Assembly (NCBI GenBank): GCA_029237775.1
Contig: JAQZBR010000003.1
Location: 210,599-274,598, forward strand
Source: Bacteroidota bacterium
Lineage (GTDB): Bacteria; Bacteroidota; Bacteroidia; 2-12-FULL-35-15
Reading direction: 5' to 3'
Length of the DNA: 64,000 nucleotides
Made by a program: the position numbers and the translations under genes. Positions 10,513 through 42,842 of this stretch are shown in pieces. The notes under the pieces were generated by a model. The model ran no database searches and was not told the origin of the DNA. It saw only the letters and a program-made list of their open reading frames with translations. Position 1 is the first letter of the stretch. The number at the start of each line of letters is the position of its first letter.

Positions 10513-11400
10513 ATGACTACATCCAGCAATAAGATTCTTGTGCCTATAGATTTTTCAGAGCAGTCATTGATCGCTTTGGAACAGTCCTATAACCTCGCAC
10601 GGGAGTATCATGCAGAAATAACTTTACTTCATGTGATTGAAGAAGCAGGAGTGCTTTCTAAATTGTTTTCAAAAGAACAACATGATGATCTGAAAAAGAA
10701 CATGAAAGAGCGCTTAGATGAGTTGGCTTCCGCAGAAAGCAAGAAAGCGAAACTCACTATAAGTACATTGGTAGCACGTGGGTCTGTATACGAAAAGATC
10801 AATGAAGTTGCTGAGCTGATCAATGCAGGGATGATCATTATGGGAACCAATGGAGATGAAGGTTTGAAAAAACGCTTTATCGGATCAAATGCGTTGCGGG
10901 TGGTTCGTGAATCAAAAATTCCCGTTATTACAATTAAAGGTAAACATCATCGTAAAGGCTGTAAAAATATTGTCCTGCCGCTCGACCTCTCAAAGGAAAC
11001 CCGTGAAAAAGTAACCAAGGCGATCGAGTTGTCGAAACTTTTTGGCGGAGCTACCATACGTGTTGTATCAGTGTTATTCACTACGGACGAGTTTGTAGTG
11101 AACCGGATCACACGTCAATTGGGACAAGTGAAATCTTTCCTTGAAAAGGAAAATGTTGAATGCAGCGCTGAAATTATCAAAGGAATAAAGGGAGAGGAAA
11201 CACTTGCTCAGAATATTCTTGAGTACGCTCAAAAGGTAGAGGGAGATCTCATCATGATCATGACTCAGCAGGAGGTTGACTTTACGCTATATTTTATCGG
11301 TTCATCAGCTCAGGAGATAATTAATCATTCACCTATCCCGGTTCTCAGTATCCGCCCTGTTTTCAGGAAAGACACTACATCATTTCCTAATCCATACTAA
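10513..11400 (+). CDS. Universal stress protein (two Usp domains)
   Basis: ILVPIDFS, IIMGTNG..G...FIGSNA..VV, second domain GSSAQEIINHS. Confidence 0.9.
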   Translation: MTTSSNKILVPIDFSEQSLIALEQSYNLAREYHAEITLLHVIEEAGVLSKLFSKEQHDDLKKNMKERLDELASAESKKAKLTISTLVARGSVYEKINEVAELINAGMIIMGTNGDEGLKKRFIGSNALRVVRESKIPVITIKGKHHRKGCKNIVLPLDLSKETREKVTKAIELSKLFGGATIRVVSVLFTTDEFVVNRITRQLGQVKSFLEKENVECSAEIIKGIKGEETLAQNILEYAQKVEGDLIMIMTQQEVDFTLYFIGSSAQEIINHSPIPVLSIRPVFRKDTTSFPNPY

Positions 11401-11429
11401 GGTTTTAAAAATATTTTTATCTGAAATTT

Positions 11430-12311
11430 ATGAAAACATTTAATCCAAGAAAGATCCTTATTCCTGTAGATTTTTCGGAAACATCCATGATCGCAATAGA
11501 ACATGCGGCATTTATGGCGCAGCTGTTCAAAGCAGAGCTTGTATTGTTGCATGTTGTTGAAAAGCACTGGGAAAAATTCAGTGTTGTGGCTCCAGAAATG
11601 AGAGTGGAAGCTCCAAGCGACCTGATCAACTCTATTGAAAAAAGACTGGAGGAAACCGCAGGTGATATCAGGGAGAAATACGGTGTGACCTCAGTTTGTA
11701 TGACATCTGATGGCGCTATTTATTCGGAAGTAATTTCTGTTGCAAAAGAGCATAATGTTGATCTTATTGTTATGGGAACTCACGGGACTTCCGGAATTGT
11801 TGAATTTTTTATCGGAAGCAATGCATACAAAGTCGTCACTGAATCCACTTGTCCCGTTTTAACTGTGAGAGCTTATTCAAATAAGTTAGGATTTAAAAAC
11901 ATTGTATTGCCTGTTGACGATTCAATACATTCGCGTCAGAAGGTTAATCACGCAATTGTGCTGGCGAAACAATTTGCCGCTAAAATCCACATCCTCGGAT
12001 TGTCTGATTCAGAAGACGAAGGCGAAATAAAGCATTTCGAAAAGAAGATTGATGGGATTGCTGATTACCTTACGAAGTGCAATATCCAATTTTCACGTAA
12101 AACGATCAATGGCGGCAATCAGGCCAAGGTGTCCTATGATTATGCGAAGACAGTTAATGCAGATCTGATTGTGATCATGACAGATCAGGACGAAAATATT
12201 ACCGGACGTTTACTCGGAACATACGCGCAACAGGTTGTAAATCACTCTAAGATTCCTGTGTTAAGCATTCAGCCGGTGATTGCAAACATACCTTTTGTAC
12301 TGCCATACTAA
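11430..12311 (+). CDS. Universal stress protein (two Usp domains), tandem paralog
   Basis: ILIPVDFS, DLIVMGTHG.SG..EFFIGSNA. Confidence 0.9.
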   Translation: MKTFNPRKILIPVDFSETSMIAIEHAAFMAQLFKAELVLLHVVEKHWEKFSVVAPEMRVEAPSDLINSIEKRLEETAGDIREKYGVTSVCMTSDGAIYSEVISVAKEHNVDLIVMGTHGTSGIVEFFIGSNAYKVVTESTCPVLTVRAYSNKLGFKNIVLPVDDSIHSRQKVNHAIVLAKQFAAKIHILGLSDSEDEGEIKHFEKKIDGIADYLTKCNIQFSRKTINGGNQAKVSYDYAKTVNADLIVIMTDQDENITGRLLGTYAQQVVNHSKIPVLSIQPVIANIPFVLPY

Positions 12312-28221: not shown

Positions 28222-28259
28222 AAAAAAGCCCTGACGTTTGAATGTCGGGGCTTTTTTTT
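28222..28259 (-). terminator. Terminator after glyA
   Basis: aaaaaagccctgac / gtcggggctttttt hairpin. Confidence 0.8.
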
Positions 28260-29529
28260 AAGCGAAGAGCGGAAGGGTCTTCATCATTTTATTGACCTCT
28301 TTTTTCACTTCTGCGATAACCTTTTCGTTTTCTGCATTGGTGAGAACTTTATCAATGAGATTAACGATCTTCGGGATCTGCTTTTCCTTGATGCCACGAG
28401 TTGTTATAGCCGAAGTACCCACACGGATCCCCGATGTTACAAATGGTGATTTGTCATCAAAAGGCACCATATTCTTATTTACAGTAATATCAGCTTTCAC
28501 TAAAGTGTTTTCAGCAAGCTTTCCGGAGATGTTCTTTGAACGCAAATCAATCAGCATACAGTGATTGTCTGTTCCACCCGAAATAACTTTATAGCCTTTG
28601 TCCACAAAACATTGCGCCATCAATTTCGCGTTTTTCATTACCTGAATACAGTATTTCATATAGCTGTCTTCAAGTGCTTCACCAAATGCAACTGCTTTTG
28701 CAGCGATCACATGCTCAAGCGGCCCGCCTTGTGTTCCCGGGAATACTGCAGCGTCAAGCATCTGTGACATCATTTTGATCTCGCCTTTCAGTGTTTTTTC
28801 ACCCCATGGATTTTGAAAATCTTTTCCGATCATTATCATTCCTCCGCGAGGCCCACGAAGTGTTTTATGTGTTGTAGTTGTTACTATATGGCAATAAGGC
28901 AAAGGATCATTTAAAAGACCACGTGCAATAAGTCCGGACGGGTGTGAGATGTCTGCCATTAATAAAGCACCGACTTTGTCAGCGATCTTTCTGAATGTTT
29001 TGTAATCCCAATCTCTGGAATATGAAGATGCACCACAAATAATAAGTTTTGGTTTTTCTTTCATTGCGATCTCTTCAACCGTTTTCATATTTACTTTCCC
29101 GGTTTTTTCCTCCACTCCGTAAAAACTTGGTGCATATAGTTTCCCTGAAAAATTTACAGGCGACCCGTGGGTAAGGTGGCCTCCGTGAGAAAGATCAAAT
29201 CCAAGGATCTTGTCTCCGGGTTTTAAAACAGCAAGCATAACTGCTGCATTTGCCTGAGCTCCTGAATGAGGCTGTACATTCACCCATTCGGCATTGAATA
29301 ATTTTTTTGCCCTGTCAATTGCAAGCTGCTCAACTTTATCTACAACCTCACAACCGCCATAATATCTTTTGTTTGGAAGGCCTTCTGCATATTTGTTTGT
29401 AAGTACCGAGCCCATTGCTTTCATTACCTGATCGCTAACGTAGTTCTCAGAGGCAATGAGTTCGATGCCAACAGTCTGACGTTTTTTTTCTTCATTTATC
29501 AGGTCAAAAATTGCGGTGTCTTTTTTCAT
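28258..29529 (-). CDS. glyA: Serine hydroxymethyltransferase
   Basis: [45 protein letters not shown]. Confidence 0.97.
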
Positions 29530-29631: not shown

Positions 29632-30123
29632 CTAATTTACTGTTCTTGTCGGGTCTTTTTCTTTTTCCGCCAGTTTAAATAAAGGAATTAGTATCATCAA
29701 TATTACAGGAGATTGTGCGATGCCCATAAAATATCTGGCAAATTCATACATTTTTGCAGACGTACCGGGAAAAATTACTCCGGTAATGATAAAAAGCGCA
29801 GAGAACAGAGTGATAAAGAGGAAAGCCCAGATGGTGATTTTCTGAAAGAGAGGGGAATTGAAAATTACATTAATAGCATAAAGAGATATCAAAAGGTATA
29901 AGAAGCTAAAGATCATTGTAAATAACCATTTTAGATTCACGATCGTATCATACTCCAGATTTTTAATAAAATCTAGGTAGTATGGCATATCGTAATCCAT
30001 GTCTGCATCCCAGGCTTGCAACAAGGCATTAATGCTTTTAAATGTAGTCTCCCTGAAAAAACCGGTAAAAAGAATCAAAACAAGTATGCAAGAGAAATGA
30101 ATGTATTTGCGGGGAATTCTCAC
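29632..30123 (-). CDS. Exosortase-associated membrane protein (XrtX/XrtF-system type)
   Basis: Multi-TM; FRE..F..IN, KW..T..F, RYFMGIAQSP resemble (from recall) Bacteroidota exosortase-associated proteins. Start moved to GTG 30123 because a TACTTTTG box at 30128-30135 lies inside the longer ORF. Confidence 0.55.
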   Translation of the reverse strand: MRIPRKYIHFSCILVLILFTGFFRETTFKSINALLQAWDADMDYDMPYYLDFIKNLEYDTIVNLKWLFTMIFSFLYLLISLYAINVIFNSPLFQKITIWAFLFITLFSALFIITGVIFPGTSAKMYEFARYFMGIAQSPVILMILIPLFKLAEKEKDPTRTVN

Positions 30124-30287
30124 GTGGCAAAAGTACAAAACCAATGTATTTACGAAACATAAAAACCAATTTTAATTAATCTTACCAAAAGTTTAATTGG
30201 TCGGATTTCACTGGTATATTCTTTAAATTTTTACTATTTTTAACATTTACTAGACGGTGCACAGACCGGTCAAACAATTTTATTCAG

Positions 30288-33200
30288 GTGAACATGATCA
30301 AGAATAGCTACTCACTATTTTTTCTTTTATTTCTTTTTTGCTTCAAAAGCTATTCTGCTACATTCTATTCTCGTTCTAACGGAAGTTGGAATACAGCTTC
30401 CACCTGGTCTACATCTGCATGTGGAAATTCAGCTACCACTTTGATCCCGGGTGCATCTGACGATGTTATTATCTGCGCGGGTTATACAATCACAATGAAC
30501 GGTAATCCAGCCAATTGCAACAAGCTTACATTGAGCGGGACTGCTGACTGGACGTCAGGTTTTGTAATTAATATCGGTGCGGGAGGATTTATAATGAATG
30601 CCGGTTCAAGTATTACTGGTTCCGGTGGACCGAACAGCGGGTCAATTAATGTAGCCGGCAATTTTACAGTTAATACAGGAGGTACTTCAACCCTTCAGAG
30701 AGGAAGTTTGATCGTGAACGGAACCACAAATATTTTCGGGACGTTTTCTATTACTAGTACTTTTGGTACTAAAAGTTTTCAGGACGTTAATATCAACGGG
30801 GGTACCTTTACAAGCGCTGCAACAGAAACCTATACTATTAACGGGAATGTTGTTTTGACAAACGGGACAATCACAGGATCGTCTACCGGGGTTTTCAATA
30901 TTGGCGGAACATTGACTGTTGCTTCCGGTACATCTGTTCTTGGGGCGGGAACAATAAGCGTTACCGGCACAACAACCTTAAATGGAAATTTAAATGAGAA
31001 CAGCGCAAACGGGACGAAAACCTTTTCAAATATTATAATCAATTCAGGGGCGACCTGGAATAATCTTTCTGCAGAAACTTATGCAGTTAGCGGAACCCTT
31101 ACGATGAATGGCGGCACCATTACGGGAACTGCATCCGGCAGATATGATGTCACCGGTGGTTTTGTCGTTGCAAGCGGAACAAATACGTTAGGCAATTCAT
31201 TAATGAATGTTACCGGTCCGACCACCATCAATTCGACTTTGAATATAACAAGTGTTACAGGCACCAAAACTTTTGGAGATGTCACCATATCTTCAACAGG
31301 TAACTGGAACTCCTCTGTCGCTGAAGATTTTACCATCAATGGGAATTTTACTAATAATGGTTCCTTCACTTCCAACACCGGTATCTATACTTTTGCGGGA
31401 ACCGGCAAAACTTTTGGCGGCACAGCATTGTCTTCTTTTGCACGACTCAATAATACGGGTTCATACACGAATGATGGTGTTGTAGAGGTAAATACTATGC
31501 ACTATGGCGCGGGAAGCTTCACTCAGGGAACAACCGGTTCTTATTTTCATAAAATGCTGAGCGCGAATTTCACTGTTACCACATTCAATGCATCTGCTGC
31601 CGGAAATGTAGTTACGTACAATTATGCGGGGGTACAGAATATTCGAAACCCGACCAACCTCCTCGGCTATTATCACCTTACTACAGCGGGTACTGGAATT
31701 AAAACACAGCTAGCAAATACTAGTGTTGGTGGAGATCTAATAATTTCAGCTGCAAGCACCCTGAATCTGGCAACTTTCAGTCTAACTGTCAAAGGAAATT
31801 TTACAAATAATGGCGCATTTACTCCAACAACCGGGGTAAATATAGTTACACTTAGCGGGACTGCTATGCAAACAATCGGGGGGGCTGTGATCACGACATT
31901 CCCAAATCTAACCATCAGCAATGCTACTGGAGTCGGTCTTGCCTTAAATACAGTAATATCTTCTAATCTGAATTTCACTGCCGGTGTTATAACAACAGGA
32001 ACTAATAAGGTTTCTATGACGGCTCTGACTGGAACTGTTACAGGTGCAGGAACATCTAAGTTTGTAAATGGATTTTTTGAAAAAAATATTTCCGCAGGTG
32101 CAGGTGTTATCCGCACTTTCGAAATAGGTAACGGGACCATAAATTATACTCCGGTTACTTTGAATTTTGCGAGTGTTTCAACTGGCGGAACTGTTACAGC
32201 AAGTGTTAGCAATGCGGATCATGCGTCAGTTTCTGCTTCATGCATAGACGAGCTGAAAAGCGTTAATCGTGTATGGACCTTGACCAACTCAGGGACTGTA
32301 TTCTCTACTTATTCTGCTTCATGTACATTTATTGGAGCTACAACTGATGCAGATGCAGGTTCTGTTCCGGCAAATTATTACATGTCTTCTTACAGTGGAG
32401 GTGTCTGGACCTTATTAACAAGAGGGACAGTAAGTTCAACCGTAAATCAGGGAACTGCAATATCAATTTTAGGCGATTTGCAGGTAGGAGAAAGACGAAC
32501 CCCTACTATTCCTGTTCAGCCCGTTGGTGATACCGTATGTAACAATACAAGCGCTGTCTTCTCATTGACTGTGAATGGTGTAGGGCTTAGCTATCAGTGG
32601 CAGCAAAATACCGGAAGCGGCTTTGTCAATCTTGCGAACGGAGGAATTTATTCGGGGGTCACTACAAGTACATTAACGGTCAATCCGGCTGTGAACAGCA
32701 TGAACGGGTATCAGTACCAGTGCGTGATCAGTAATATTTGCGCTACGGCTTTAGTCACTTCGAACGCAGCAACCTTAACCGTAACTCCAAATGTCACCGC
32801 AAGTGTTTCCATCTCAGGAAGTCCGGCCGGGGCAATATGCGCAGGAACGAACGTTACGTTCACAGCGATGCCCGTAAATGGGGGTACAATCCCTGCTTAT
32901 CAATGGCAGGTTAACAATGTAAATACTGGAAGTAATTCTGCTACATTTTCAAGCAGTACGCTCAGTAATGCTGATCAGGTAAAATGCCTGCTAACGTCAA
33001 ACGCGGTTTGTGTGCAGGGAAGTCCGGCAACTTCGAATATTGTAACGATGACAGTGAATCCAAATCTGCCTGTAAGTGTGAACATTATAGCGAGCTCCAC
33101 GGTAATCTGTCCGGGCACCTCAGTTACGTTTACCGCCACACCGGGCAATGGAGGAACAACACCTTCATATCAATGGCTGTTGAACGGTTCAAACGTTGGC

Positions 33201-36200
33201 AGTAATTCACCCAGCTATTCAAATGCAGCACTTGTTAATGGTGATATCGTAACGTGTGTTCTTACTTCTAGTGCGGTTTGTCCTACCGGCTCACCTGCTA
33301 CTTCAAATGCTATAACAATAACAGTAAATCCTTTATTGCCGGTAAGTGTCAGTATTTCAGCAAGTCCTTCGAATATAATCTGTGCAGGAACTAATGTAAC
33401 ATTTACTGCGAGTTCAGTAAATGGTGGAGCGTCACCAACATATCAATGGCAGCTAAATGGCGTAAATACAGGTACTAACAGCTCAACTTACTCAAGTTCA
33501 ACACTTAATACGGGTGATGTTGTGACATGTATTCTTACTTCCGGTGCTACCTGCGCAACAGGCAGTCCGGCCACTTCCAACAGTATAACCATGACTGTGA
33601 ATCCGAATATGCCTTTAAGCGTTTCGATTTCAGCAAGCCCTTCCAATGTTATTTGTTCAGGAGATAACGTATTGTTTACAGCCAATGTAACAAATGGCGG
33701 AGGATACGAATCGTATCAATGGAAACTTAACGGTGTAAATGCCGGGTCGAACTCGCTGACATTCTCTATCAGTTCTCTTGCGAATAATGATGTAGTGACC
33801 TGTGTTGTTTCCACATCAGCACAGTGTGTCACAGGATCGCCTGCAATATCCAACAGTATTGTGATGACTGTGAGTCCGGTCTTACCGGTTAGCGTTTCTG
33901 TTTCAGCTAATCCCTCAAATACAGTTTGTGCTGGGACGAATGTTACTTTCACTGCATCGGGTACTAACGGAGGATCATCACCGGTATACCAATGGTTATT
34001 GAATGGTTCTAACATTGCAACCGGCACAACGTATTCTAATTCTTCACTCGCTAGCGGTGATCAGGTCAGCTGTGTACTGACATCGAATGTTACCTGCTCA
34101 AGTTCCAATCCCGCAACTTCGAATACGATTACAATGACCGTGAATCCTAATATGCCGGTTAGTGTGAGTATTGCTTCCAGTGCTGCCACTTCATGCTCCG
34201 GATCTGCAGTAACATTTACAGCAACACCGGTCAATGGCGGAACAAGCCCATCATACCAATGGCTCCGGAACGGATCGAACACAGGTACAAATTCAGCTAC
34301 GTATATTTCTTCAACTCTCACGAACGGAGATATTATTTCAGTTGTTTTAACCTCGAATGTCGTTTGTCCGACTGGTAATCCGGCAACAAGTAATACAATT
34401 ACTCAGACCGTCACTTCAGGGGGCAGCTGGTTGGGAGCTGTATCAACGGATTGGAATAATACAGGGAACTGGTGCGGAGGAGTTCCTGCTTTGACATCAG
34501 ATGTTACAATCGCAGCGGGATTACCATTCGCGCCTGTTTTAACAGCTACATCGTATTGCAAGAATATTAACATTGCTGCAGGTACAAATCTTACTCTGAA
34601 TGGTAATCTTCTGAATATTTATGGAAGTATTTCAGGAACAGGAATGTTTACGGGAAGCAATTCTTCAGCGATCAACTTGGCGGCAGGAAGCGGCTCCGGA
34701 GGAACGTTGTATATGGATCAATCTGTTGCCGGTACTTCGAATGCACTTGCTGCGATCACTCTGGATCGTTCAGCGGCTTCAATTGTATTAGGAAATACGC
34801 TGGCGGTAACCAACAGTGTGACTGTCACTGCCGGGACACTTTCTTCATCCGGCAATCTTACACTTGTATCAAATGCATCAGGAACCGCAAGAATTTCAAC
34901 ACTTGCAAGCGGTGCCGATGTTTCGGGAAATGTAACTGCCCAGCGATACATTCCGGCAGGGACAGATGGCTGGATGTTCCTTTGTTCTCCTGTTTCAGGC
35001 GCAACACTTCAGCAATGGGATGATGATTTCATCACAGGCGGTTTTCCGGGATCATTCTATCCTCCATCTCCGAACCCATCCATTGTAACTTATGATGAGA
35101 CGGTTTTAGGTTTGTATGATAGCGGTTATGTAGCTCCTTCAGGTATTACCGATGCGATTGCTGCAAGAAAGGGCTATTGGGCGTATATAATGGGAACTCC
35201 TCTGACAATAGACGTTACAGGGCCCATCCTGAAGAATAACCAGACATTCTCTGTTTCTTATACAAACGATGCGACACAAGCCGCAAGTGAGAACGGTTGG
35301 AATCTGGTGGCTAATCCATATCCATCAACCATCGATTGGGATGCAGCAGGCTGGACTAAAACGAATGTGAATGATGCGATCTATATGTATAGCGCAGATC
35401 TGGATCAATATACGAGTTACGTTGGTGGAATAGGAGTGAATGGCGGTACAAACCTGATAGCTTCTTCTCAGGCATTTCTTGTGCAGACAAGTGGAGGGTC
35501 TCCAGTATTAAAATTAAATGAAACGGTGAAGGATGCCACTGACGAGCAATTCATCAGAACACCTGTATCGCCTGATGAATTGATCAGGTTAGGTTTGACC
35601 GGAAATGGATATACAGATGAAACTGTTATTCACTTCAATTCACAAGCGACTGATGGATTTGATCGTTCGTTTGACGCGAGAAAGTTTTTAAGCTTTAATA
35701 CAGATGTTCCAGCCATCGGCTCAATGATAGATAGTGTATTCAGTTCTGTGAACACGTTGCCTTCGATAAGCAATGAACTCGCAATCCCTGTAAAGGTTAA
35801 AGTGGGTGTTACCGGTACATACACTATCCAATTGAATAATACCAGCTGGATGCCTTCAGTAAGCTGTCTGGTCCTGGAAGATCTTAAAACAGGAATACAA
35901 ACCGATCTTCGTTCAACAGCGTCTTATACTTTTAATATTTCTGACACTACGGTATTTCCTCGCTTCGTTATCAGGGTGGGAAAACCAATAGAAACGGTTT
36001 CTAATTCAGCAACCTGCACCGGCAATAACAATGGATCAGCCTGGGCTGTTGGAAATGGGACCGGCCCATGGGATTATACATGGGAAGACCAAAATGGTGT
36101 TCCGGTTCAAACACACAATGGCGTTTCGGGCCCCGATAGCCTGATATCAATGTCACCGGGAAATTATTCGGTTCATATTTCCGGTAATTCAGGTGCCTGC

Positions 36201-36995
36201 AGTGTGCTTGACGCAATGGTTACCATTGGCGCTCATGACACTCTGAATGTGACAGTACAGGTAAGCAATACCGGATGCCTTAATACAGCAGATGGAAGTA
36301 TTGAAGTGATTGATGTAGCAGGAGGAACAGCTCCTTATTCTTATAACTGGTCAAACGGTACCATAACTCCGGTCGATGGTGCTTTAACACCTGGGGTGTA
36401 TGCATTAACAGTCACCGATAGTACCGGCTGTCAATATATAAGTGAATATATTGTCAATTCTGATTCTCACTTATCGGCTGAATATTATGTAAGCAATGAT
36501 ACAGTTAATTTAAGTGATGATGAGGCCGTTGAATTCTCTAATCCGGACAAGGAAATAACTTCCTTCTCCTGGAATTTCGGTGATGGCTCAGCAGTGAATA
36601 ATTCCCCAAATCCAAGCTATTTATATGCTTTGCCGGGCGTATATCAAACTACGCTAATTGTGTCAGATGGGGTTTGTGTAGATACTTCAGCACAGACTGT
36701 AGTTGTGGAGACAGAAGTTTTATCCGTTGGAGTTCAGGAAACTGTAAACGATGAATATCTGAATATTACCATAAATGATGAGGTGGCCGAACTTTATTAT
36801 CAATTTAATGGAGTTTCAGTTGTTGATGTGGAGGTGATGAATGTAACGGGTCAAAAAGTTGTCGCAGATAAGCATCTGGAAAGCGGAAGCGGTAAGCTTT
36901 CCTACAATCTGAAGGGACTTGGTGATGGAATTTACTACTTCCGAATTACCTCCGGAAAAGATAAGGTTATCACAAAACGCGTCATTAAGTTATAG
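30288..36995 (+). CDS. 2235-aa T9SS cargo adhesin-like protein (beta-helix, Ig-like repeats, SprB-like/PKD, type A CTD)
   Basis: Signal peptide, NGSWNTASTW start, T/G/N-rich repeats, six Ig-like repeats, GGTAPYSYNWSNG (SprB-like), WNFGDG (PKD), C-terminal GIYYFRI...KRVIK. Confidence 0.88.
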   Translation: MNMIKNSYSLFFLLFLFCFKSYSATFYSRSNGSWNTASTWSTSACGNSATTLIPGASDDVIICAGYTITMNGNPANCNKLTLSGTADWTSGFVINIGAGGFIMNAGSSITGSGGPNSGSINVAGNFTVNTGGTSTLQRGSLIVNGTTNIFGTFSITSTFGTKSFQDVNINGGTFTSAATETYTINGNVVLTNGTITGSSTGVFNIGGTLTVASGTSVLGAGTISVTGTTTLNGNLNENSANGTKTFSNIIINSGATWNNLSAETYAVSGTLTMNGGTITGTASGRYDVTGGFVVASGTNTLGNSLMNVTGPTTINSTLNITSVTGTKTFGDVTISSTGNWNSSVAEDFTINGNFTNNGSFTSNTGIYTFAGTGKTFGGTALSSFARLNNTGSYTNDGVVEVNTMHYGAGSFTQGTTGSYFHKMLSANFTVTTFNASAAGNVVTYNYAGVQNIRNPTNLLGYYHLTTAGTGIKTQLANTSVGGDLIISAASTLNLATFSLTVKGNFTNNGAFTPTTGVNIVTLSGTAMQTIGGAVITTFPNLTISNATGVGLALNTVISSNLNFTAGVITTGTNKVSMTALTGTVTGAGTSKFVNGFFEKNISAGAGVIRTFEIGNGTINYTPVTLNFASVSTGGTVTASVSNADHASVSASCIDELKSVNRVWTLTNSGTVFSTYSASCTFIGATTDADAGSVPANYYMSSYSGGVWTLLTRGTVSSTVNQGTAISILGDLQVGERRTPTIPVQPVGDTVCNNTSAVFSLTVNGVGLSYQWQQNTGSGFVNLANGGIYSGVTTSTLTVNPAVNSMNGYQYQCVISNICATALVTSNAATLTVTPNVTASVSISGSPAGAICAGTNVTFTAMPVNGGTIPAYQWQVNNVNTGSNSATFSSSTLSNADQVKCLLTSNAVCVQGSPATSNIVTMTVNPNLPVSVNIIASSTVICPGTSVTFTATPGNGGTTPSYQWLLNGSNVGSNSPSYSNAALVNGDIVTCVLTSSAVCPTGSPATSNAITITVNPLLPVSVSISASPSNIICAGTNVTFTASSVNGGASPTYQWQLNGVNTGTNSSTYSSSTLNTGDVVTCILTSGATCATGSPATSNSITMTVNPNMPLSVSISASPSNVICSGDNVLFTANVTNGGGYESYQWKLNGVNAGSNSLTFSISSLANNDVVTCVVSTSAQCVTGSPAISNSIVMTVSPVLPVSVSVSANPSNTVCAGTNVTFTASGTNGGSSPVYQWLLNGSNIATGTTYSNSSLASGDQVSCVLTSNVTCSSSNPATSNTITMTVNPNMPVSVSIASSAATSCSGSAVTFTATPVNGGTSPSYQWLRNGSNTGTNSATYISSTLTNGDIISVVLTSNVVCPTGNPATSNTITQTVTSGGSWLGAVSTDWNNTGNWCGGVPALTSDVTIAAGLPFAPVLTATSYCKNINIAAGTNLTLNGNLLNIYGSISGTGMFTGSNSSAINLAAGSGSGGTLYMDQSVAGTSNALAAITLDRSAASIVLGNTLAVTNSVTVTAGTLSSSGNLTLVSNASGTARISTLASGADVSGNVTAQRYIPAGTDGWMFLCSPVSGATLQQWDDDFITGGFPGSFYPPSPNPSIVTYDETVLGLYDSGYVAPSGITDAIAARKGYWAYIMGTPLTIDVTGPILKNNQTFSVSYTNDATQAASENGWNLVANPYPSTIDWDAAGWTKTNVNDAIYMYSADLDQYTSYVGGIGVNGGTNLIASSQAFLVQTSGGSPVLKLNETVKDATDEQFIRTPVSPDELIRLGLTGNGYTDETVIHFNSQATDGFDRSFDARKFLSFNTDVPAIGSMIDSVFSSVNTLPSISNELAIPVKVKVGVTGTYTIQLNNTSWMPSVSCLVLEDLKTGIQTDLRSTASYTFNISDTTVFPRFVIRVGKPIETVSNSATCTGNNNGSAWAVGNGTGPWDYTWEDQNGVPVQTHNGVSGPDSLISMSPGNYSVHISGNSGACSVLDAMVTIGAHDTLNVTVQVSNTGCLNTADGSIEVIDVAGGTAPYSYNWSNGTITPVDGALTPGVYALTVTDSTGCQYISEYIVNSDSHLSAEYYVSNDTVNLSDDEAVEFSNPDKEITSFSWNFGDGSAVNNSPNPSYLYALPGVYQTTLIVSDGVCVDTSAQTVVVETEVLSVGVQETVNDEYLNITINDEVAELYYQFNGVSVVDVEVMNVTGQKVVADKHLESGSGKLSYNLKGLGDGIYYFRITSGKDKVITKRVIKL
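32790..34415 (+). repeat. Six tandem ~90-aa Ig-like repeats
   Basis: Consensus VSVSISASP...ICxGTNVTFTA..xNGG..PxYQWxLNG.N.G....Y....LxxGDxVxCxLTS...CxxGxPATSNxITxTVNP, counted six times. Confidence 0.9.
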
Positions 36996-37535
36996 CTACT
37001 TGCGGGGAGAAGAGGGAGAAAGTGTTTTGTCACTTATTTTGTTTGTCCAGAGCATCCATAAAAAGAATATAAAGCCATAGATAATTATTGTAAAGGTGTA
37101 AGTATGGTTGAATTCAGTCCAGGTTCTGGAATGCGTATCAAGGATAGCAAGGAAAACCACCCTAAGAATATTCAGTATTTCAATCATTAAGATCCCGAGG
37201 GGAATGAAATACAACTTTTTTTTCCAGTTACCCGGATAAGCAATAATAAAACCCGTAAAAAGGGAAAAAAGTGCTATACCGTTACAGTTATCCCCAATCC
37301 ATAAGCCCCCGGTTCCATCGATACCGATTAGTCTGTCGGATCCCGTGAAAACAGTATATCCTAATCCTTCAAGTATCCATTTGCTTACCGCGACAGTTTT
37401 ATCAATCACAAAAAGATCCATTGTTTTGGCAGGATGTAGCCAGAGATTATATAACAGATACCATCCAAGATAGAAGCCTAGAATAGAAAGAAGAAACCGT
37501 ATGATAGGGTTTTGAAGAAAAGACAGCTTTTGCAT
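36996..37535 (-). CDS. Exosortase family transpeptidase (XrtX/XrtF-like, Bacteroidota type)
   Basis: Multi-TM with the exosortase Cys-Arg-His triad: IGDNCNG, NILRV, FNHTYTF. Confidence 0.85.
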   Translation of the reverse strand: MQKLSFLQNPIIRFLLSILGFYLGWYLLYNLWLHPAKTMDLFVIDKTVAVSKWILEGLGYTVFTGSDRLIGIDGTGGLWIGDNCNGIALFSLFTGFIIAYPGNWKKKLYFIPLGILMIEILNILRVVFLAILDTHSRTWTEFNHTYTFTIIIYGFIFFLWMLWTNKISDKTLSPSSPRK

Positions 37536-37541
37536 AAGGAC

Positions 37542-37573
37542 AAAAAAAATCCCGTTTTAAGCGGGATTTTTTT
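37542..37573 (-). terminator. Terminator between the PID-CTERM-like gene and the exosortase
   Basis: aaaaaaaatcccg / cgggattttttt hairpin overlapping the stop codon at 37557. Confidence 0.75.
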
Positions 37574-37799
37574 TAAGTGAACTGTAGATTTTATATCCTC
37601 CAAAGGCCATTCCGGCAATAAGGAGTAGTATTACACTGCTATCCAATGGTATCGGGCATGGCGGGAATGGTCCACCACAAGGGTTTGGAGGCCCCATACC
37701 CATACCTGTTCCCATACCGAGGGCGGCAGCTTTTGAAACTGTTGCCAGATAAGGAGCAGTAAAAATAAGAACAGTTAAAAATATTTTTTTAAATTTCAT
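37557..37799 (-). CDS. 80-aa PID-CTERM-like exosortase substrate
   Basis: Signal peptide, short Gly/Met/Pro linker, then PIPLD motif + TM helix (SSVILLLIAGMAFGGY) + basic tail (KIYSSLKK); directly upstream of the exosortase. Confidence 0.78.
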   Translation of the reverse strand: MKFKKIFLTVLIFTAPYLATVSKAAALGMGTGMGMGPPNPCGGPFPPCPIPLDSSVILLLIAGMAFGGYKIYSSLKKNPA

Positions 37800-37816: not shown

Positions 37817-37824
37817 CAAATTTA
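37817..37824 (-). promoter_or_regulatory. -7 promoter box (TAAATTTG) for the PID-CTERM-like gene
   Basis: Exact TAnnTTTG on - strand, 17 nt before the ATG. Confidence 0.65.
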
Positions 37825-37843: not shown

Positions 37844-40243
37844 CTACTTTCTTACGTATTTTTTAGTGATCAAACCTTTTGAAGACTCAATCTTAACAAT
37901 GTACATACCTGAGAAATCCTGAGGCAAGTTGAGGTTTACAGTCTGATTTTCTGCTAAGACAGTGGTGGTTTCAACGATATTCTGTCCCATGATGTTAGTA
38001 ACGTTAATAGTAGCAGGGGTTGCCTCTTCCATGTCGAATGTTACAGTGTTACCATCAACAGTTGGTAGAATGCTCACTTGATTATTTAACTCAGAATTCA
38101 TATCGCTGTTAACAAAAGCTCTGCAGTTACCAGATTTTGTAAGGTGAAGAATAAATCTGTCTGACGCTTCGTTTGTATTCAATTCGAAAGAATAAGCTTC
38201 CCCTTTTGTAAGGTCGATAGTTTTGTTCAACACTTTATCCTCAAGGGTAATGCACGAATATTCACTAACATTCTCCAAGCCGGCAGCTTCAATTTTATAA
38301 AAGCCTTGTTTCGCCACAGACACTGAAACCGGCATTGAGAAATTATCATCAAAAGAATTGAATGAGTTAATAACCGCTTTTCTTCCGTCAATTTTAGTGT
38401 AAATTGAAGGGGCAAGTGGGTTAGGGCTTTTATGGAAAGGATGATCATTCGAATCCCAACCGTCTGATGCTGTATTGTTACCGGCTACTTTTAAAGTGTG
38501 ATAGAAAGAGTTTCCTGCATCATTAGCTGAGAATTTCAGGCTCAGGTAAGGCTCAGCAACTACGGATCTCAAAGAGCTGTTTGAAGAGGTGGATTTTGAG
38601 CTTTCAGGAATAATCAAGGTAGCTGTGGAGGTGGTTGTATACACCCAGAAACCTTGAGTTGAACCGATCTCAGTACCTAAACCAAAGGTTGCATAATTCC
38701 CTGAAGCAGCATCAAATACATCATAAGTGTTTAAAATTCCGCTGGAAGCTGTAAACACATCACTCCATCTGATACTTGATGCAAAAGGGTTTCCGACAAG
38801 ATTAGAACCGGCACTGTTAAAAGAGATCAACCCGCTTAGATCCTGATCAGTCTGATTAGGTACACCAATCGTATTGATTGTGGTGTTTGGGAGATTACTG
38901 TATGAAAAGTCTCCGGTCATATACACTTCAAATCCCTGTCCCGGTGTTAAAGCCGTTGCTGATGAAGTGATTGCGCTGAATGCATCTTCAGTTTCATCAT
39001 AGATCCATTGTGTTGGATATGAAGATGGTGGGCTGAAAGTATAGTAAGTTACCGGCAATTCATTATCCCAGTCATTGAAAGTTGAATTCTGAACAGGAGA
39101 AGAAAGATCCGCCCAGGTGCTGTCGCGGGAAGTGATAAAACGCTCCACGGTAAAGTTTCCTGCAATAGCTCCTGTTCCGGTTATAGGTGCAATGCGGGCA
39201 GTTTGAGTCGCGTCAGAGGTCATCGTAAATGAACGTCCACCGGTGTTAAATGTTCCGTTGCTTACAGTTATAACCTCATCAAGTATATAAGTTCCGGATG
39301 TTAAAGTAACTCCATTAGTATTATTGATTGTCAAACCTTTAAAAGTGGTAGTGCCAAATGTATTCGATACAGACTGGGCAGCAGTACCGTTAAAGGTAAC
39401 TGTCTTGCCTGCTGAAGCGGTAAAAGTGGCCGCGTTGGTCCAGTTTCCAGCTACGGAAAGATCGAAATTATTGGTATTGAGGTGATTCCCGGCATTCATT
39501 GTTAGATTATTCGCAATCACGGTATTCGCAGCGAGTGTTTTAGTGCCTGACGTAGATGCAGTAAGAGATAAGTTATAATATCCTGAAGAGGCAAGAGGAA
39601 CCGCTCCGGCAGCATATCTTAAGTTAACGGTGTTGCCGGTTGCATGAGCGTGAAATGTAGCGCCACTCATAAATCCGGCTTTAAGAAGAGATAATGTAGC
39701 GCCAGCAGAATTAACGAAGACAGATCCGGATTTACCGATAAAGTCGGAGAATGTGCAGATACCAAGGTTCGTTAACGTTTTATTAACAGCCAGGGTTATA
39801 ATTCCTCCCGCTGCTTTTGTTAAAGTGGATCCGGCCTGAACAGTCGCATTGTTAGAAAAAGAATATCTGCTTGTAGGAGATGAAGTACCGGTAATAGTAA
39901 GCGAAATGTTGGTTGCAATGAATAAAATTGTTCCGCTGCCAGTTTCAGTACCTGAAAGATTATAATTGCCACGTACCGACATTGTATTGCTGATCAACTG
40001 TAAGGTTCCGGCAACAGTCAGATTTCTCGCTGCACAGCCTGTTGCGTTAACAAAAACGGTGTGTCCGGCAGAAATTGTTACATCATCCGAGCTGGTCGGC
40101 ACGCCATTAGGTATCCAAGTGGTGCTCGAGAGCCAACTTGATGGTCCCGTACCAGCGGAAGTGTAACTAATGGCAGACACCTGGACTGCAAGACAGGTAA
40201 AAAGTGCAAAAAAACTGAGTTTGATTAAGTTAAAGTGTTTCAT
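37844..40243 (-). CDS. T9SS cargo surface protein, paralogous to part of the 2235-aa protein
   Basis: Signal peptide; TARI...G...GN.T..R.I....W..L.SPV and NLV.NP..S.I.W shared with 30288-36995; CTD-like end SGMYIVKI...ITKK. Confidence 0.82.
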   Translation of the reverse strand: MKHFNLIKLSFFALFTCLAVQVSAISYTSAGTGPSSWLSSTTWIPNGVPTSSDDVTISAGHTVFVNATGCAARNLTVAGTLQLISNTMSVRGNYNLSGTETGSGTILFIATNISLTITGTSSPTSRYSFSNNATVQAGSTLTKAAGGIITLAVNKTLTNLGICTFSDFIGKSGSVFVNSAGATLSLLKAGFMSGATFHAHATGNTVNLRYAAGAVPLASSGYYNLSLTASTSGTKTLAANTVIANNLTMNAGNHLNTNNFDLSVAGNWTNAATFTASAGKTVTFNGTAAQSVSNTFGTTTFKGLTINNTNGVTLTSGTYILDEVITVSNGTFNTGGRSFTMTSDATQTARIAPITGTGAIAGNFTVERFITSRDSTWADLSSPVQNSTFNDWDNELPVTYYTFSPPSSYPTQWIYDETEDAFSAITSSATALTPGQGFEVYMTGDFSYSNLPNTTINTIGVPNQTDQDLSGLISFNSAGSNLVGNPFASSIRWSDVFTASSGILNTYDVFDAASGNYATFGLGTEIGSTQGFWVYTTTSTATLIIPESSKSTSSNSSLRSVVAEPYLSLKFSANDAGNSFYHTLKVAGNNTASDGWDSNDHPFHKSPNPLAPSIYTKIDGRKAVINSFNSFDDNFSMPVSVSVAKQGFYKIEAAGLENVSEYSCITLEDKVLNKTIDLTKGEAYSFELNTNEASDRFILHLTKSGNCRAFVNSDMNSELNNQVSILPTVDGNTVTFDMEEATPATINVTNIMGQNIVETTTVLAENQTVNLNLPQDFSGMYIVKIESSKGLITKKYVRK

Positions 40244-40460
40244 GATATAATTTAAATTTTTCGTAAAGATATCTTCTTTAGAACTTTAAAAAATTACAAA
40301 AGGCGCTAGGAAGTTCCAAATGTAAGGAAAATTCTTTTTTTGTCAAACCTTTATTCCTATTCCTTTACGGAATATTATCTAATTAGTTACATTCTTTAAT
40401 TAAGGACAGATTTTACCTTCAGGATTATTCCTATATTTGGAAGATTTTTTTACCATTTTT

Positions 40461-42842
40461 ATGCCAGACAAAAAGAAAACAAATTTAATTGAACTTGAGG
40501 ATTTTCGTTCCACGTTTAAAATATTTTTAAAAAACTGGTACATTTTGCTGGCTTTCCTTCTGGCAGCTTCCATTCTATCATATTTTTACACGTATAAATT
40601 ACCGAATGTTTATGCGGCAAAAACTCAGATTCTCCTTAAAAATCAGGAAACTTATGATTATCAGAATCAGATCTATAAAGGTATTGGATATTACCAGTCT
40701 TATCAGGACAATGCTAATCAGATCAGGGTTTTAACTTCAAATGACCTGATTTCAGAAGCGCTCACAAAATTAAAATTTGAGGTTTCCTATTTTATAGTAG
40801 GCAGGCTGAAAACTACTGAGGTGTATGAGGGCGTTCCCTTTGATATTGCTGTCACAAGTGTAAATCAGAATCTATATGAGAAAGATATTCATTTCAAAAT
40901 AGTTAATGAAAAGCAATTCGAGCTTTCATATTTAAAGGGCGGGGATAATGTGGTAAAAAAGTATGATTTCAATAAAGAGATTATTAATGAGGATTTTTTC
41001 ATCACTGTTAAAAAAAATCAGATTCTTAATGAAAAAACGGTTACAAGTCTAAAAGAAATAGATTATCAATTAAAAATCCACAAGCTAGACTATTTGATTT
41101 CCAAAATTAAAAATCTTTTACAGGTGGATAATGTTGAAAATACCACCATTTTGGAACTTACTCTTCAGGATGAAATCCCCCTTCGGGCGATCACTTTTTT
41201 AGACACTTTATCCAATTCTTATATTAATTACACCTCCCGGAATCAAATAGCCATTAATAATAATACTTTAGAAAATATTGATAAACAGTTAAAAGAAATT
41301 ACTGAGGTACTCACTTCCATTGAAGATGATATGGAGAACTACAGGGCCAACAAGGCAATTCTCGATATAGATAAACAGCAGGAAGATTATTTTAATAAAT
41401 TAATTGAATTTGACTCTCAGAAGCGCCAGGCAGAATTAACAATTCAATCCCTGGAGGCCCTCCAAAAATATATAATTTCAGTTGGAAACTTAACAGACGA
41501 GAAATTGCTACCTCCGTCATTTTATATCTCTCAGGGCGATGATTATTTAAGAACAGCTTTAGGGAAGTTGTATGAGCTACAAATGGACCGAAATCAAAGG
41601 TTAAATGGTTCGACCATACAGAACCGAAATATTAGCGAATTGGATGAGGAGCTTGGGTTGTTAAAGAATAATATTTTGACCTATATAACCAATTCTAAAA
41701 CAGGTTTACACCAAAGGATTGAAGATTTAAAAGGTCAGATCAATCACTATACAGGTATTATCAAAACAGTTCCCCGAACAGAAAGGGATCTGTTAAACAT
41801 CCAGAGAAAGCTGGATGTTAACCAAAAAATGTATTCTTTTTTGCTTGAAAAAAGAGCTAGTACCATGATCGCGCGCGCGGGGATATTGCCCGAAACAAGT
41901 GTGATCGAATCAGCTCACTCAATAGGTGTAGTTGCTCCGAATAAGCGGAAGATCATGTATTACTTTTTAATTGCAGGCACAATCCTCAGTTTGATTGTTG
42001 TTTTTATAAGGACCAATATGTTTTCAACTATTGAAAATGTTATGGAATTAAAACGAATTTCTACCTTACCTGTATTAGGCGAAATAATTTTTCATTCCAG
42101 TGAAAATGAAAGTTATTTTATTGTAGATAAGGATTCAAAGGCTCCGATCACTGAAAGTTTCAGGGCAATCCGTACTAATCTTGAGTATTTTGCAAGTGAC
42201 CGAAAATCTAAGGTGGTGCTATTGACCTCTTACCTTCCGGGCGAAGGAAAAACTTTTTGTTCAGTTAATCTTGCTACTATTCTCGCAAAAGCCGGTAAAA
42301 AAGTTTTGCTGTTAGAGCTTGATCTCCATAAGCCGAAAGTTCAAAAAGCCTTTAATATGGAATCTCTGGTAGGGGCCAGTAATATACTTATCGGAAAGGC
42401 TGCCATTCCATCAACCATTCAGGAGACAGGTATCGAGAATTTATTTGTAATGTTATCCGGCCCGACCCCGCCTAATGCTTCCGAGCTCATTTTAAGCCCA
42501 CATCTTTCGGAAATTTTCGACTATGGGCGCGACCATTTTGACTATGTTATCGTAGATACGCCACCGATCGGTTTAATTACTGATGCCCTTGTGATGATGA
42601 AAAATGCGGATGTGTCACTCTTTGTACTGAATACGAAATTTGCAAAAAAACAAATCATCGGAATTGTTGAAGAACTCGTAGAGCAGAACAAATTCAAAAA
42701 TTTCGCTATGATTCTCAATGGCGTGAAACGTAAAAAATCAGGGTATTATTACAATTACGGATACGGTTATGGCTACGGTTACGGCTATGGAAACGGTTAC
42801 GGCTATGGATCATATGGCAAGCCCGAACCAAAGAAAAAATAA
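40461..42842 (+). CDS. wzc: Polysaccharide co-polymerase / BY-kinase (Wzc/GumC family)
   Basis: Two TMs around a coiled-coil periplasmic domain, Walker A TSYLPGEGKT, IVDTPP, C-terminal Tyr cluster. Start moved to ATG 40461 (TATATTTG box at 40432-40439). Confidence 0.9.
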   Translation: MPDKKKTNLIELEDFRSTFKIFLKNWYILLAFLLAASILSYFYTYKLPNVYAAKTQILLKNQETYDYQNQIYKGIGYYQSYQDNANQIRVLTSNDLISEALTKLKFEVSYFIVGRLKTTEVYEGVPFDIAVTSVNQNLYEKDIHFKIVNEKQFELSYLKGGDNVVKKYDFNKEIINEDFFITVKKNQILNEKTVTSLKEIDYQLKIHKLDYLISKIKNLLQVDNVENTTILELTLQDEIPLRAITFLDTLSNSYINYTSRNQIAINNNTLENIDKQLKEITEVLTSIEDDMENYRANKAILDIDKQQEDYFNKLIEFDSQKRQAELTIQSLEALQKYIISVGNLTDEKLLPPSFYISQGDDYLRTALGKLYELQMDRNQRLNGSTIQNRNISELDEELGLLKNNILTYITNSKTGLHQRIEDLKGQINHYTGIIKTVPRTERDLLNIQRKLDVNQKMYSFLLEKRASTMIARAGILPETSVIESAHSIGVVAPNKRKIMYYFLIAGTILSLIVVFIRTNMFSTIENVMELKRISTLPVLGEIIFHSSENESYFIVDKDSKAPITESFRAIRTNLEYFASDRKSKVVLLTSYLPGEGKTFCSVNLATILAKAGKKVLLLELDLHKPKVQKAFNMESLVGASNILIGKAAIPSTIQETGIENLFVMLSGPTPPNASELILSPHLSEIFDYGRDHFDYVIVDTPPIGLITDALVMMKNADVSLFVLNTKFAKKQIIGIVEELVEQNKFKNFAMILNGVKRKKSGYYYNYGYGYGYGYGYGNGYGYGSYGKPEPKKK

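Follow-up and report, generated by a model that had tools for sequence, protein, structure and literature searches.

Among described C-terminal sorting systems, the closest to the locus analysed here is the XrtX system, which is known as database models for an exosortase (NF046081), a PID-CTERM substrate (NF046080) and an XrtX-associated membrane protein (NF046082, hereafter the partner); a literature search on XrtX, PID-CTERM and 'exosortase X' found nothing relevant. We analysed a stretch of 64,000 nucleotides (nt), here called the window, on contig JAQZBR010000003.1 (positions 210,599 to 274,598) of an uncultured soil Bacteroidota bacterium, which carries all three components, each in single copy according to six-frame profile searches of the whole 4.08-Mb genome. 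We give a probability of about three in four to the reading that the window holds a complete XrtX module, that this module has been split by an inverted paralogue of its type IX secretion system (T9SS) cargo gene, and that the partner is read from its own leaderless GUG message. As in the modelled system, the substrate gene lies immediately upstream of the enzyme gene, and the enzyme keeps the invariant Cys, Arg and His residues. The window differs in that 6.9 kb and an opposite-strand gene separate xrtX from the partner, which has a predicted promoter to itself, in that the partner and (by hmmscan) the substrate score just under the curated cut-offs, and in that the substrate motif is P-L-D, not P-I-D.

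Three further systems are relevant. The XrtF system (TIGR04128) likewise pairs a small exosortase of ~175 amino acids (aa) with a small multi-pass membrane protein in Bacteroidota; the latter is the family modelled by TIGR04127 ('exosortase F system-associated'). With 84 bits, the window XrtX does not reach the XrtF model's cut-off of 90, and it matches the XrtX model much more closely. To our knowledge, XrtF has no recognised dedicated substrate, whereas the window system has one. ArtA/PGF-CTERM and XrtA/PEP-CTERM resemble the window in their sorting signal, which consists of a short motif, a membrane helix and a basic tail, and in their setting beside polysaccharide loci, since the window exosortase matches TIGR04178 and a Wzc-type gene adjoins the module. 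They differ in having many large substrates instead of one tiny dedicated one, and the window enzyme is much shorter. Finally, as with T9SS type A cargo anchored by PorU, both large genes beside the window module end in TIGR04183, and the genome has two PorU genes; unlike other T9SS cargo, they share a central domain without a Pfam or PDB match, found only in these two genes beside XrtX.

The locus leaves the picture of how exosortases work unchanged and is not a new kind of system. Together with its relatives, it shows by comparison what belongs to the XrtX system: one dedicated mini-substrate, an attenuator-like hairpin, and a partner that is conserved even when moved away from the enzyme gene. 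Its interest rests mainly on the co-occurrence of a T9SS cargo family with XrtX and on a conserved candidate for leaderless GUG initiation.

Components of the XrtX module

Gene order and strands, taken from the map of open reading frames (ORFs), are as follows.

28258-29529, minus strand: glyA (serine hydroxymethyltransferase), from the ORF map; conserved downstream neighbour of the partner gene
29632-30123, minus strand: partner gene, from its GTG (longest ORF 29632-30144); NF046082 match
30128-30135, minus strand: -7 promoter box TACTTTTG, followed by CCAC (4 nt) and the GTG at 30123-30121
30288-36995, plus strand: interleaved T9SS cargo gene (the adhesin), 2235 aa; TIGR04183, PKD and Ig_3 matches
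36996-37535, minus strand: exosortase XrtX, 179 aa; NF046081 match
37541-37575, minus strand: hairpin with A-tract and T-tract between the substrate gene and xrtX, from its folding score
37557-37799, minus strand: PID-CTERM mini-substrate, 80 aa; NF046080 match
37817-37824, minus strand: -7 box TAAATTTG, 17 nt before the substrate ATG
37844-40243, minus strand: conserved T9SS cargo gene upstream of the substrate, 799 aa; TIGR04183, 41.3 bits
40437-42842, plus strand: Wzc-type polysaccharide co-polymerase / tyrosine autokinase; TIGR01007, 175 bits, with Wzz, GNVR and AAA_31 domains

An earlier reading of the DNA letters without database searches (the sequence-only reading) had described the order substrate (-), exosortase (-), T9SS cargo (+) and partner (-). 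The ORF map agrees with it, and all four gene identities hold by profile matches. XrtX matched NF046081 with 193.1 bits by hmmscan and 192.7 bits in the six-frame genome search (cut-off 170), and TIGR04178 with 57.4 bits (cut-off 23). Its residues Cys84, Arg125 and His144 are invariant across 14 homologues; we take these to be the catalytic residues of the exosortase/archaeosortase core.

The substrate is the sole PID-CTERM match in the genome, scoring 25.0 bits against NF046080 (cut-off 26) by protein hmmscan and 26.8 bits in the six-frame search. It consists of a signal peptide, GMG repeats, PCGGPFPPCPIPLD, a membrane helix and KKNPA. Its C-terminal part reads PIPLD-SSVILLLIAGMAFGGY-KIYSSLKKNPA, so that, with the signal peptide, the whole has the motif, helix and basic-tail layout of PID-CTERM proteins. 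An equivalent small ORF of the same layout precedes xrtX in nearly every locus examined. The consensus in the genus-level clade is signal peptide, GMG repeats, PxPCGGPFPPCP[IV]P[LI]D, membrane helix and KKNPA, and outgroup substrates carry PPCWPPPC[IM]P[IV]D in place of the clade motif. The box TAAATTTG is the likely promoter of the substrate-xrtX unit, with a predicted leader of ~12-13 nt.

The hairpin (-15 kcal/mol, z -4.2) is formed in the genus with codons of the KKNPA tail as its 5′ arm and the stop codon in its loop. It was found in nearly all related loci, and the outgroup stems differ in sequence yet still pair. A sigma-70 promoter and terminator scan missed it; the sigma-70 model is not applicable to Bacteroidota promoters. 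The hairpin is probably a leaky terminator or attenuator.

In the mechanism that we propose, the signal peptide would direct export of the 80-aa precursor, and the C-terminal P-L-D/helix/KK tail would retain it in the inner membrane, as read from its sequence. XrtX, as a small polytopic cysteine transpeptidase, would cleave the precursor at the P-L-D motif and pass a ~25-residue Gly/Met/Pro/Cys peptide to an acceptor, probably either a lipid or the polysaccharide made with the adjacent Wzc. The conserved hairpin would probably keep precursor transcripts in excess over enzyme transcripts, setting a high substrate-to-enzyme ratio, and the four-helix partner would serve as an accessory of XrtX.

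Gene order in relatives and origin of the opposite-strand gene

XrtX and partner profiles were searched in 60 related genomes, and the regions recovered were compared by tblastn together with 34 named loci, all of them from metagenome-assembled genomes (MAGs) of uncultured Bacteroidota from soil and fresh water. In ten genomes belonging to ten other families, xrtX and the partner lie 6-250 nt apart on the same strand, and a phylum-wide sample contained the adjacent pair in four more genera. The partner abuts xrtX in every non-genus genome where it is detectable (14/14), which bears out the expectation of the sequence-only reading that the two genes normally adjoin. Because the pair is adjacent in all 14 genomes outside the genus, the interleaved order of the window is derived relative to the rest of the class. 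Adjacency without the adhesin, for which the same reading had proposed comparing gene order, was also found at three loci inside the genus, with gaps of 6 nt (L011/L042), 105 nt (L028) and -3 nt (L034).

The conserved order is wzc, the 799-aa T9SS gene, the PID-CTERM gene, xrtX, the opposite-strand T9SS gene where present, the partner and glyA. The genus-level clade includes 13 distinct loci or species that carry a homologous opposite-strand insert of 3.8-9.8 kb, and the distance between xrtX and the partner is 3.8-7.8 kb in eight genomes besides that of the window. In the closest relative, L023, the insert is a full-length orthologue of the 2235-aa gene with 74% identity. At six other loci, unrelated genes follow xrtX, and the partner lies beside glyA elsewhere. 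A concatenated tree placed the insert-bearing loci in two subclades and two of the adjacent-pair species in the earliest-branching subclade. Judged by these comparisons, the interleaved order is old and inherited within the genus-level clade, and is not peculiar to the window genome. The split is an ordinary rearrangement, a gene-order variant of a system known from databases.

The opposite-strand gene aligns with the 799-aa protein in four parts, namely the signal peptide with an N-terminal motif, the beta-helix-type repeats, the central domain and the C-terminal domain (CTD). The central domain, about 400-480 aa long, is 25% identical between the two proteins (E 4e-30), and a whole-genome tblastn search found it exactly twice, in the adhesin and in the 799-aa gene. 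Since it occurs only in these two genes, the adhesin is best read as an inverted paralogue of the locus's own T9SS gene. The proposal of the sequence-only reading that an adhesin gene was inserted between the pair therefore stands in so far as the order is derived. It does not stand as a recent event, since at least 13 species in two subclades share the arrangement, nor as the arrival of an unrelated adhesin, the insert being a local inverted paralogue.

We picture an ancestral layout, still present in other families, in which the partner followed 0-100 nt behind xrtX and would have been co-transcribed with it. An inverted paralogue of the beta-helix cargo gene would then have come between them in the genus-level clade and would later have grown by Ig-repeat expansion (Ig, immunoglobulin), with the partner staying beside glyA.

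The opposite-strand gene could instead have arisen repeatedly, by separate inverted duplications in the short- and long-insert subclades, in place of one old insertion followed by losses; we regard this as unlikely, though worth keeping in view. In a short-insert species (L045, 7302-9674 + / 10538-12262 -), the C-terminal 575 aa of the insert share 56% identity with the upstream T9SS gene of the same species, compared with only 25% for the window pair, and the tree joins L011, an adjacent-pair species, to the short-insert clade. The L011 node is without support, however, and the short-insert N-termini are 35-45% identical to the N-terminus of the window adhesin, which argues for common descent. 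The contrast between 56% and 25% would fit either a separate later duplication or gene conversion between inverted paralogues flanking xrtX, and to us the high identity of insert and upstream gene suggests gene conversion.

The partner gene and its predicted start

Assignment of 29632-30123 by profile, a check that had been proposed for this gene, gave NF046082 with E 8.5e-17 and 61.2 bits, covering model positions 5-146 of 147 without reaching the cut-off of 75. Only 8 of the 36 relatives that match NF046082 reach this cut-off, and most genus members and several adjacent-pair outgroups likewise fall below it. We therefore filed the gene as a putative divergent orthologue on position and sequence, not on the cut-off. 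Counted from its GTG, the protein has 163 aa with four membrane helices predicted from its sequence. Its homologues are mostly 160-166 aa long, and NCBI gives the name XrtX-associated membrane protein to one that is 53% identical.

On the minus strand, the region before the gene reads TACTTTTG-CCAC-GTG, with the box at 30128-30135 ending exactly 4 nt before the GTG. In Bacteroidota, the -7 element occupies positions -12 to -5 (PMC6847099; PMC9723704), and the spacing from box to transcription start is 4-5 nt (PMC6847099). With this spacing, transcription is expected to start at the G of the GTG, so that the predicted geometry of a leaderless gene, in which a promoter element places the transcription start on the start codon, is found here. 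One box alone is not significant: the pattern TAHHTTTG occurs 46 times in the window, compared with 50.8 expected by chance. The partner box is meaningful because its position is conserved in relatives and because the genome has a box peak at the same spacing.

As for relatives, of the 15 loci in which the partner is separated or gapped from xrtX, 14 have a box, with no more than one mismatch, 4-10 nt ahead of the conserved start codon, whereas an equivalent start-proximal box was present in only 1 of 9 adjacent-pair loci (Fisher p 1e-4, not corrected for relatedness). The suggestion of the sequence-only reading that the partner has its own promoter is supported, and its observation of the box TACTTTTG 4 nt before the GTG is confirmed. 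The sequence flanking the box is not conserved among relatives. The pattern TACTTTTG-NNNN-GTG is common to the four closest sequences, which are those of the window, L023 and two metagenome contigs; the closest relatives use the same GTG as start, and L023 has a stop codon one codon upstream of it, which excludes earlier starts. As for the genome, we counted exact boxes before each ATG opening an ORF of at least 120 aa by length of spacer. There were 32 at spacer 4 and 24 at spacer 5, compared with 2-4 each at spacers 0-3; a second, broad peak lies 17-22 nt before the ATG. The sharp peak at 4-5 nt (56 genes) indicates that leaderless genes are a real and sizeable predicted class in this genome. 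For other genes of the locus, the box positions predict ordinary leaders, ~69 nt for the 799-aa gene and ~80 nt for glyA. A leaderless partner transcript is accordingly a supported but unproven prediction. Translation-initiation rules in the phylum are still being worked out, and the partner offers a natural example of a conserved GUG-initiated leaderless candidate.

Several points weigh against the overall reading. The transcription start of the partner is a prediction; a search for runs holding the window sequence returned no RNA run, the sole run with the sequence being one soil DNA metagenome. The partner is the only GTG-started gene at spacer 4 genome-wide, and GUG is a poor initiator on leaderless mRNA in bacteria where this was tested. 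A leadered transcript could arise from one-mismatch boxes farther from the GTG, one of which, AACTTTTG, precedes it by ~55 nt. The partner scores under the curated cut-off of its family, and we found no biochemical work on XrtX in the literature. As for the history of the split, its polarity within the genus and the number of gains and losses are made less certain by the third adjacent-pair species, L011, which is placed without support, and by G026, a member of the early-branching subclade in which an adhesin-like gene already adjoins the partner.

Some of these points would fit a leadered partner mRNA, transcribed from one of the weaker boxes that lie upstream in the divergent intergenic region of 164 nt, with TACTTTTG conserved for some other reason. 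In addition to the upstream boxes, GTG hardly occurs among the other leaderless candidates of the genome, and short or absent leaders make up a minority of 3.7-13% in model Bacteroidota (PMC6847099; PMC9723704). Nevertheless, the start-proximal box is kept in separated loci amid unconserved flanks and is largely missing from adjacent-pair loci; in L023 it is not part of the reading frame, and its spacing equals the genome-wide peak. We therefore think that a leadered message has perhaps one chance in several of being correct and prefer the leaderless prediction, in which the partner would be read from the -7 box into an mRNA beginning at the start codon.

It is a good deal less probable that the separated partner no longer works with XrtX and is drifting or has taken another role. 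Such a loss would explain the sub-threshold score. It would also agree with the frame-shifted copy in MAG G028 and with the several species in which the two genes lie on different contigs or far apart. However, more than 25 species have a full-length partner with an unbroken reading frame and 43-60% identity, low scores are shared with adjacent-pair outgroups, and the partner is found almost only in genomes with xrtX, the three exceptions being incomplete MAGs.

Two other starts for the gene were rejected. A TTG at 30144 was ruled out by the stop codon at the equivalent spot in L023. The source gene call (29632-30078, 148 aa), which begins with a TTG that lies within the first membrane helix, is too short, as homologues of 160-166 aa keep the basic N-terminus and the conserved GTG. 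Several minor features were seen around this region. An out-of-frame ATG at 30160 (-) opens 'MFRKYIGFVLL', which is similar to the true partner N-terminus 'PRKYIHFSCIL'. In the region 30124-30162 (-), the promoter box is flanked on both sides by copies of a 12-nt direct repeat (CGTAAATACATT / CGCAAATACATT), and ~16 extra nt near the box are missing in L023, L077 and L078; from its letters, the region looks like a small local duplication. In G028, the partner (L010, 8289-8704) is spread over two frames, through either a frameshift or an assembly error.

T9SS cargo genes beside XrtX

The sequence-only reading had also pointed to the co-location of T9SS and exosortase sorting, possibly serving one surface layer. 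The co-location is confirmed, and it does not depend on the insertion. Directly upstream of the substrate-xrtX pair lies a gene of the 799-aa type, both in the whole genus and in 9 of the first 12 outgroup loci. Among 61 related genomes, the central domain was present in all 34 with XrtX at 150 bits or more, compared with 5 of the 27 others (Fisher p 4e-12, not corrected for phylogeny). T9SS cargo beside XrtX is thus, on comparative grounds, a conserved and ancestral state, independent of the insertion. In a second Bacteroidota class (L057-L070), the exosortase X model scored above cut-off in many genomes, and no partner, T9SS neighbour of the 799-aa type or Wzc was detected beside XrtX in the 14 genomes sampled, which limits the conserved neighbourhood to the class of the window.

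Because the T9SS domain co-occurs with XrtX in 34 of 34 genomes, the two sorting routes are probably functionally linked. More tentatively, and with odds that we put below even, the XrtX mini-peptide system and the beta-helix T9SS family with the central domain might form one functional unit, in which the T9SS proteins would need the exosortase product, a Cys/Pro-rich peptide carried on a lipid or polysaccharide, for their assembly, for their anchoring or as a ligand; a shared surface layer might then be built by both routes. If true, two independent C-terminal sorting pathways would here, for the first time, be seen to cooperate on one surface structure. With a T9SS cargo family whose presence follows that of XrtX, the vague idea of an exosortase/T9SS surface becomes a testable pairing.

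Both cargo proteins carry a type A CTD above the TIGR04183 cut-off of 23 (30.9 bits for the adhesin and 41.3 bits for the 799-aa protein). T9SS machinery is present in the genome, its two PorU genes scoring 1344 and 1258 bits against NF033707 (cut-off 420); these are full length and lie in tandem (G000, C5:160057-167384). The adhesin comprises a signal peptide, beta-helix-type repeats, seven Ig-like repeats of ~90 aa, the central domain, a PKD domain and the CTD. Relative to the 799-aa protein, it appears from the alignment to be enlarged by extra beta-helix repeats, the seven Ig-like repeats and the PKD domain. Tandem Repeats Finder detected no DNA-level repeats in the adhesin gene, and the Ig repeats have diverged. 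A PDB sequence search matched only the PKD and Ig parts of the adhesin and returned no match for the 799-aa protein; the central domain (~400 aa) had no sequence match in Pfam or PDB. For the 799-aa protein, an AlphaFold2 model with a predicted local distance difference test (pLDDT) score of 83.6 shows an N-terminal right-handed beta-helix, beta-sandwich domains and the CTD. A fold search with this model returned generic matches to tailspike beta-helices, to beta-sandwich structures and to the T9SS CTD structures 8gl8_D and 3sd2. The top fold match, an S-layer protein, had a template-modelling score (TM-score) of 0.08 and was not relied on.

The GC content inside the adhesin gene (0.43-0.46, compared with ~0.34-0.39 in the flanks) could point to a recent foreign or mobile insertion specific to the window genome, a reading that we reject as refuted by synteny, since at least 13 species share the arrangement, with the orthologue in L023 among them, the gene is the sole paralogue of its neighbour, no repeats or mobility genes were seen at its ends, and other long coding regions nearby have similar GC.

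The outer genes of the locus are also conserved. According to the tblastn comparison, wzc, which is divergent from the module, is kept beside it in most related loci, and glyA is 87-96% identical in the genus-level loci that retain it, where it always adjoins the partner; Pfam SHMT is recorded on the gene neighbouring the partner in L077. The longest wzc frame opens with a TTG at 40437, which is overlapped by a -7 box TATATTTG (40432-40439, +); judged from the letters, translation probably starts 21 nt downstream of this box, at the ATG at 40461 (MPDKKK...). At the other end of the module, the stop codons of the adhesin (TAG, +) and xrtX (TAG, -) abut at 36993-36998 with zero intergenic bases and no terminator, so that the convergent transcripts must overlap there. 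The same gap measures 50-250 nt in relatives.

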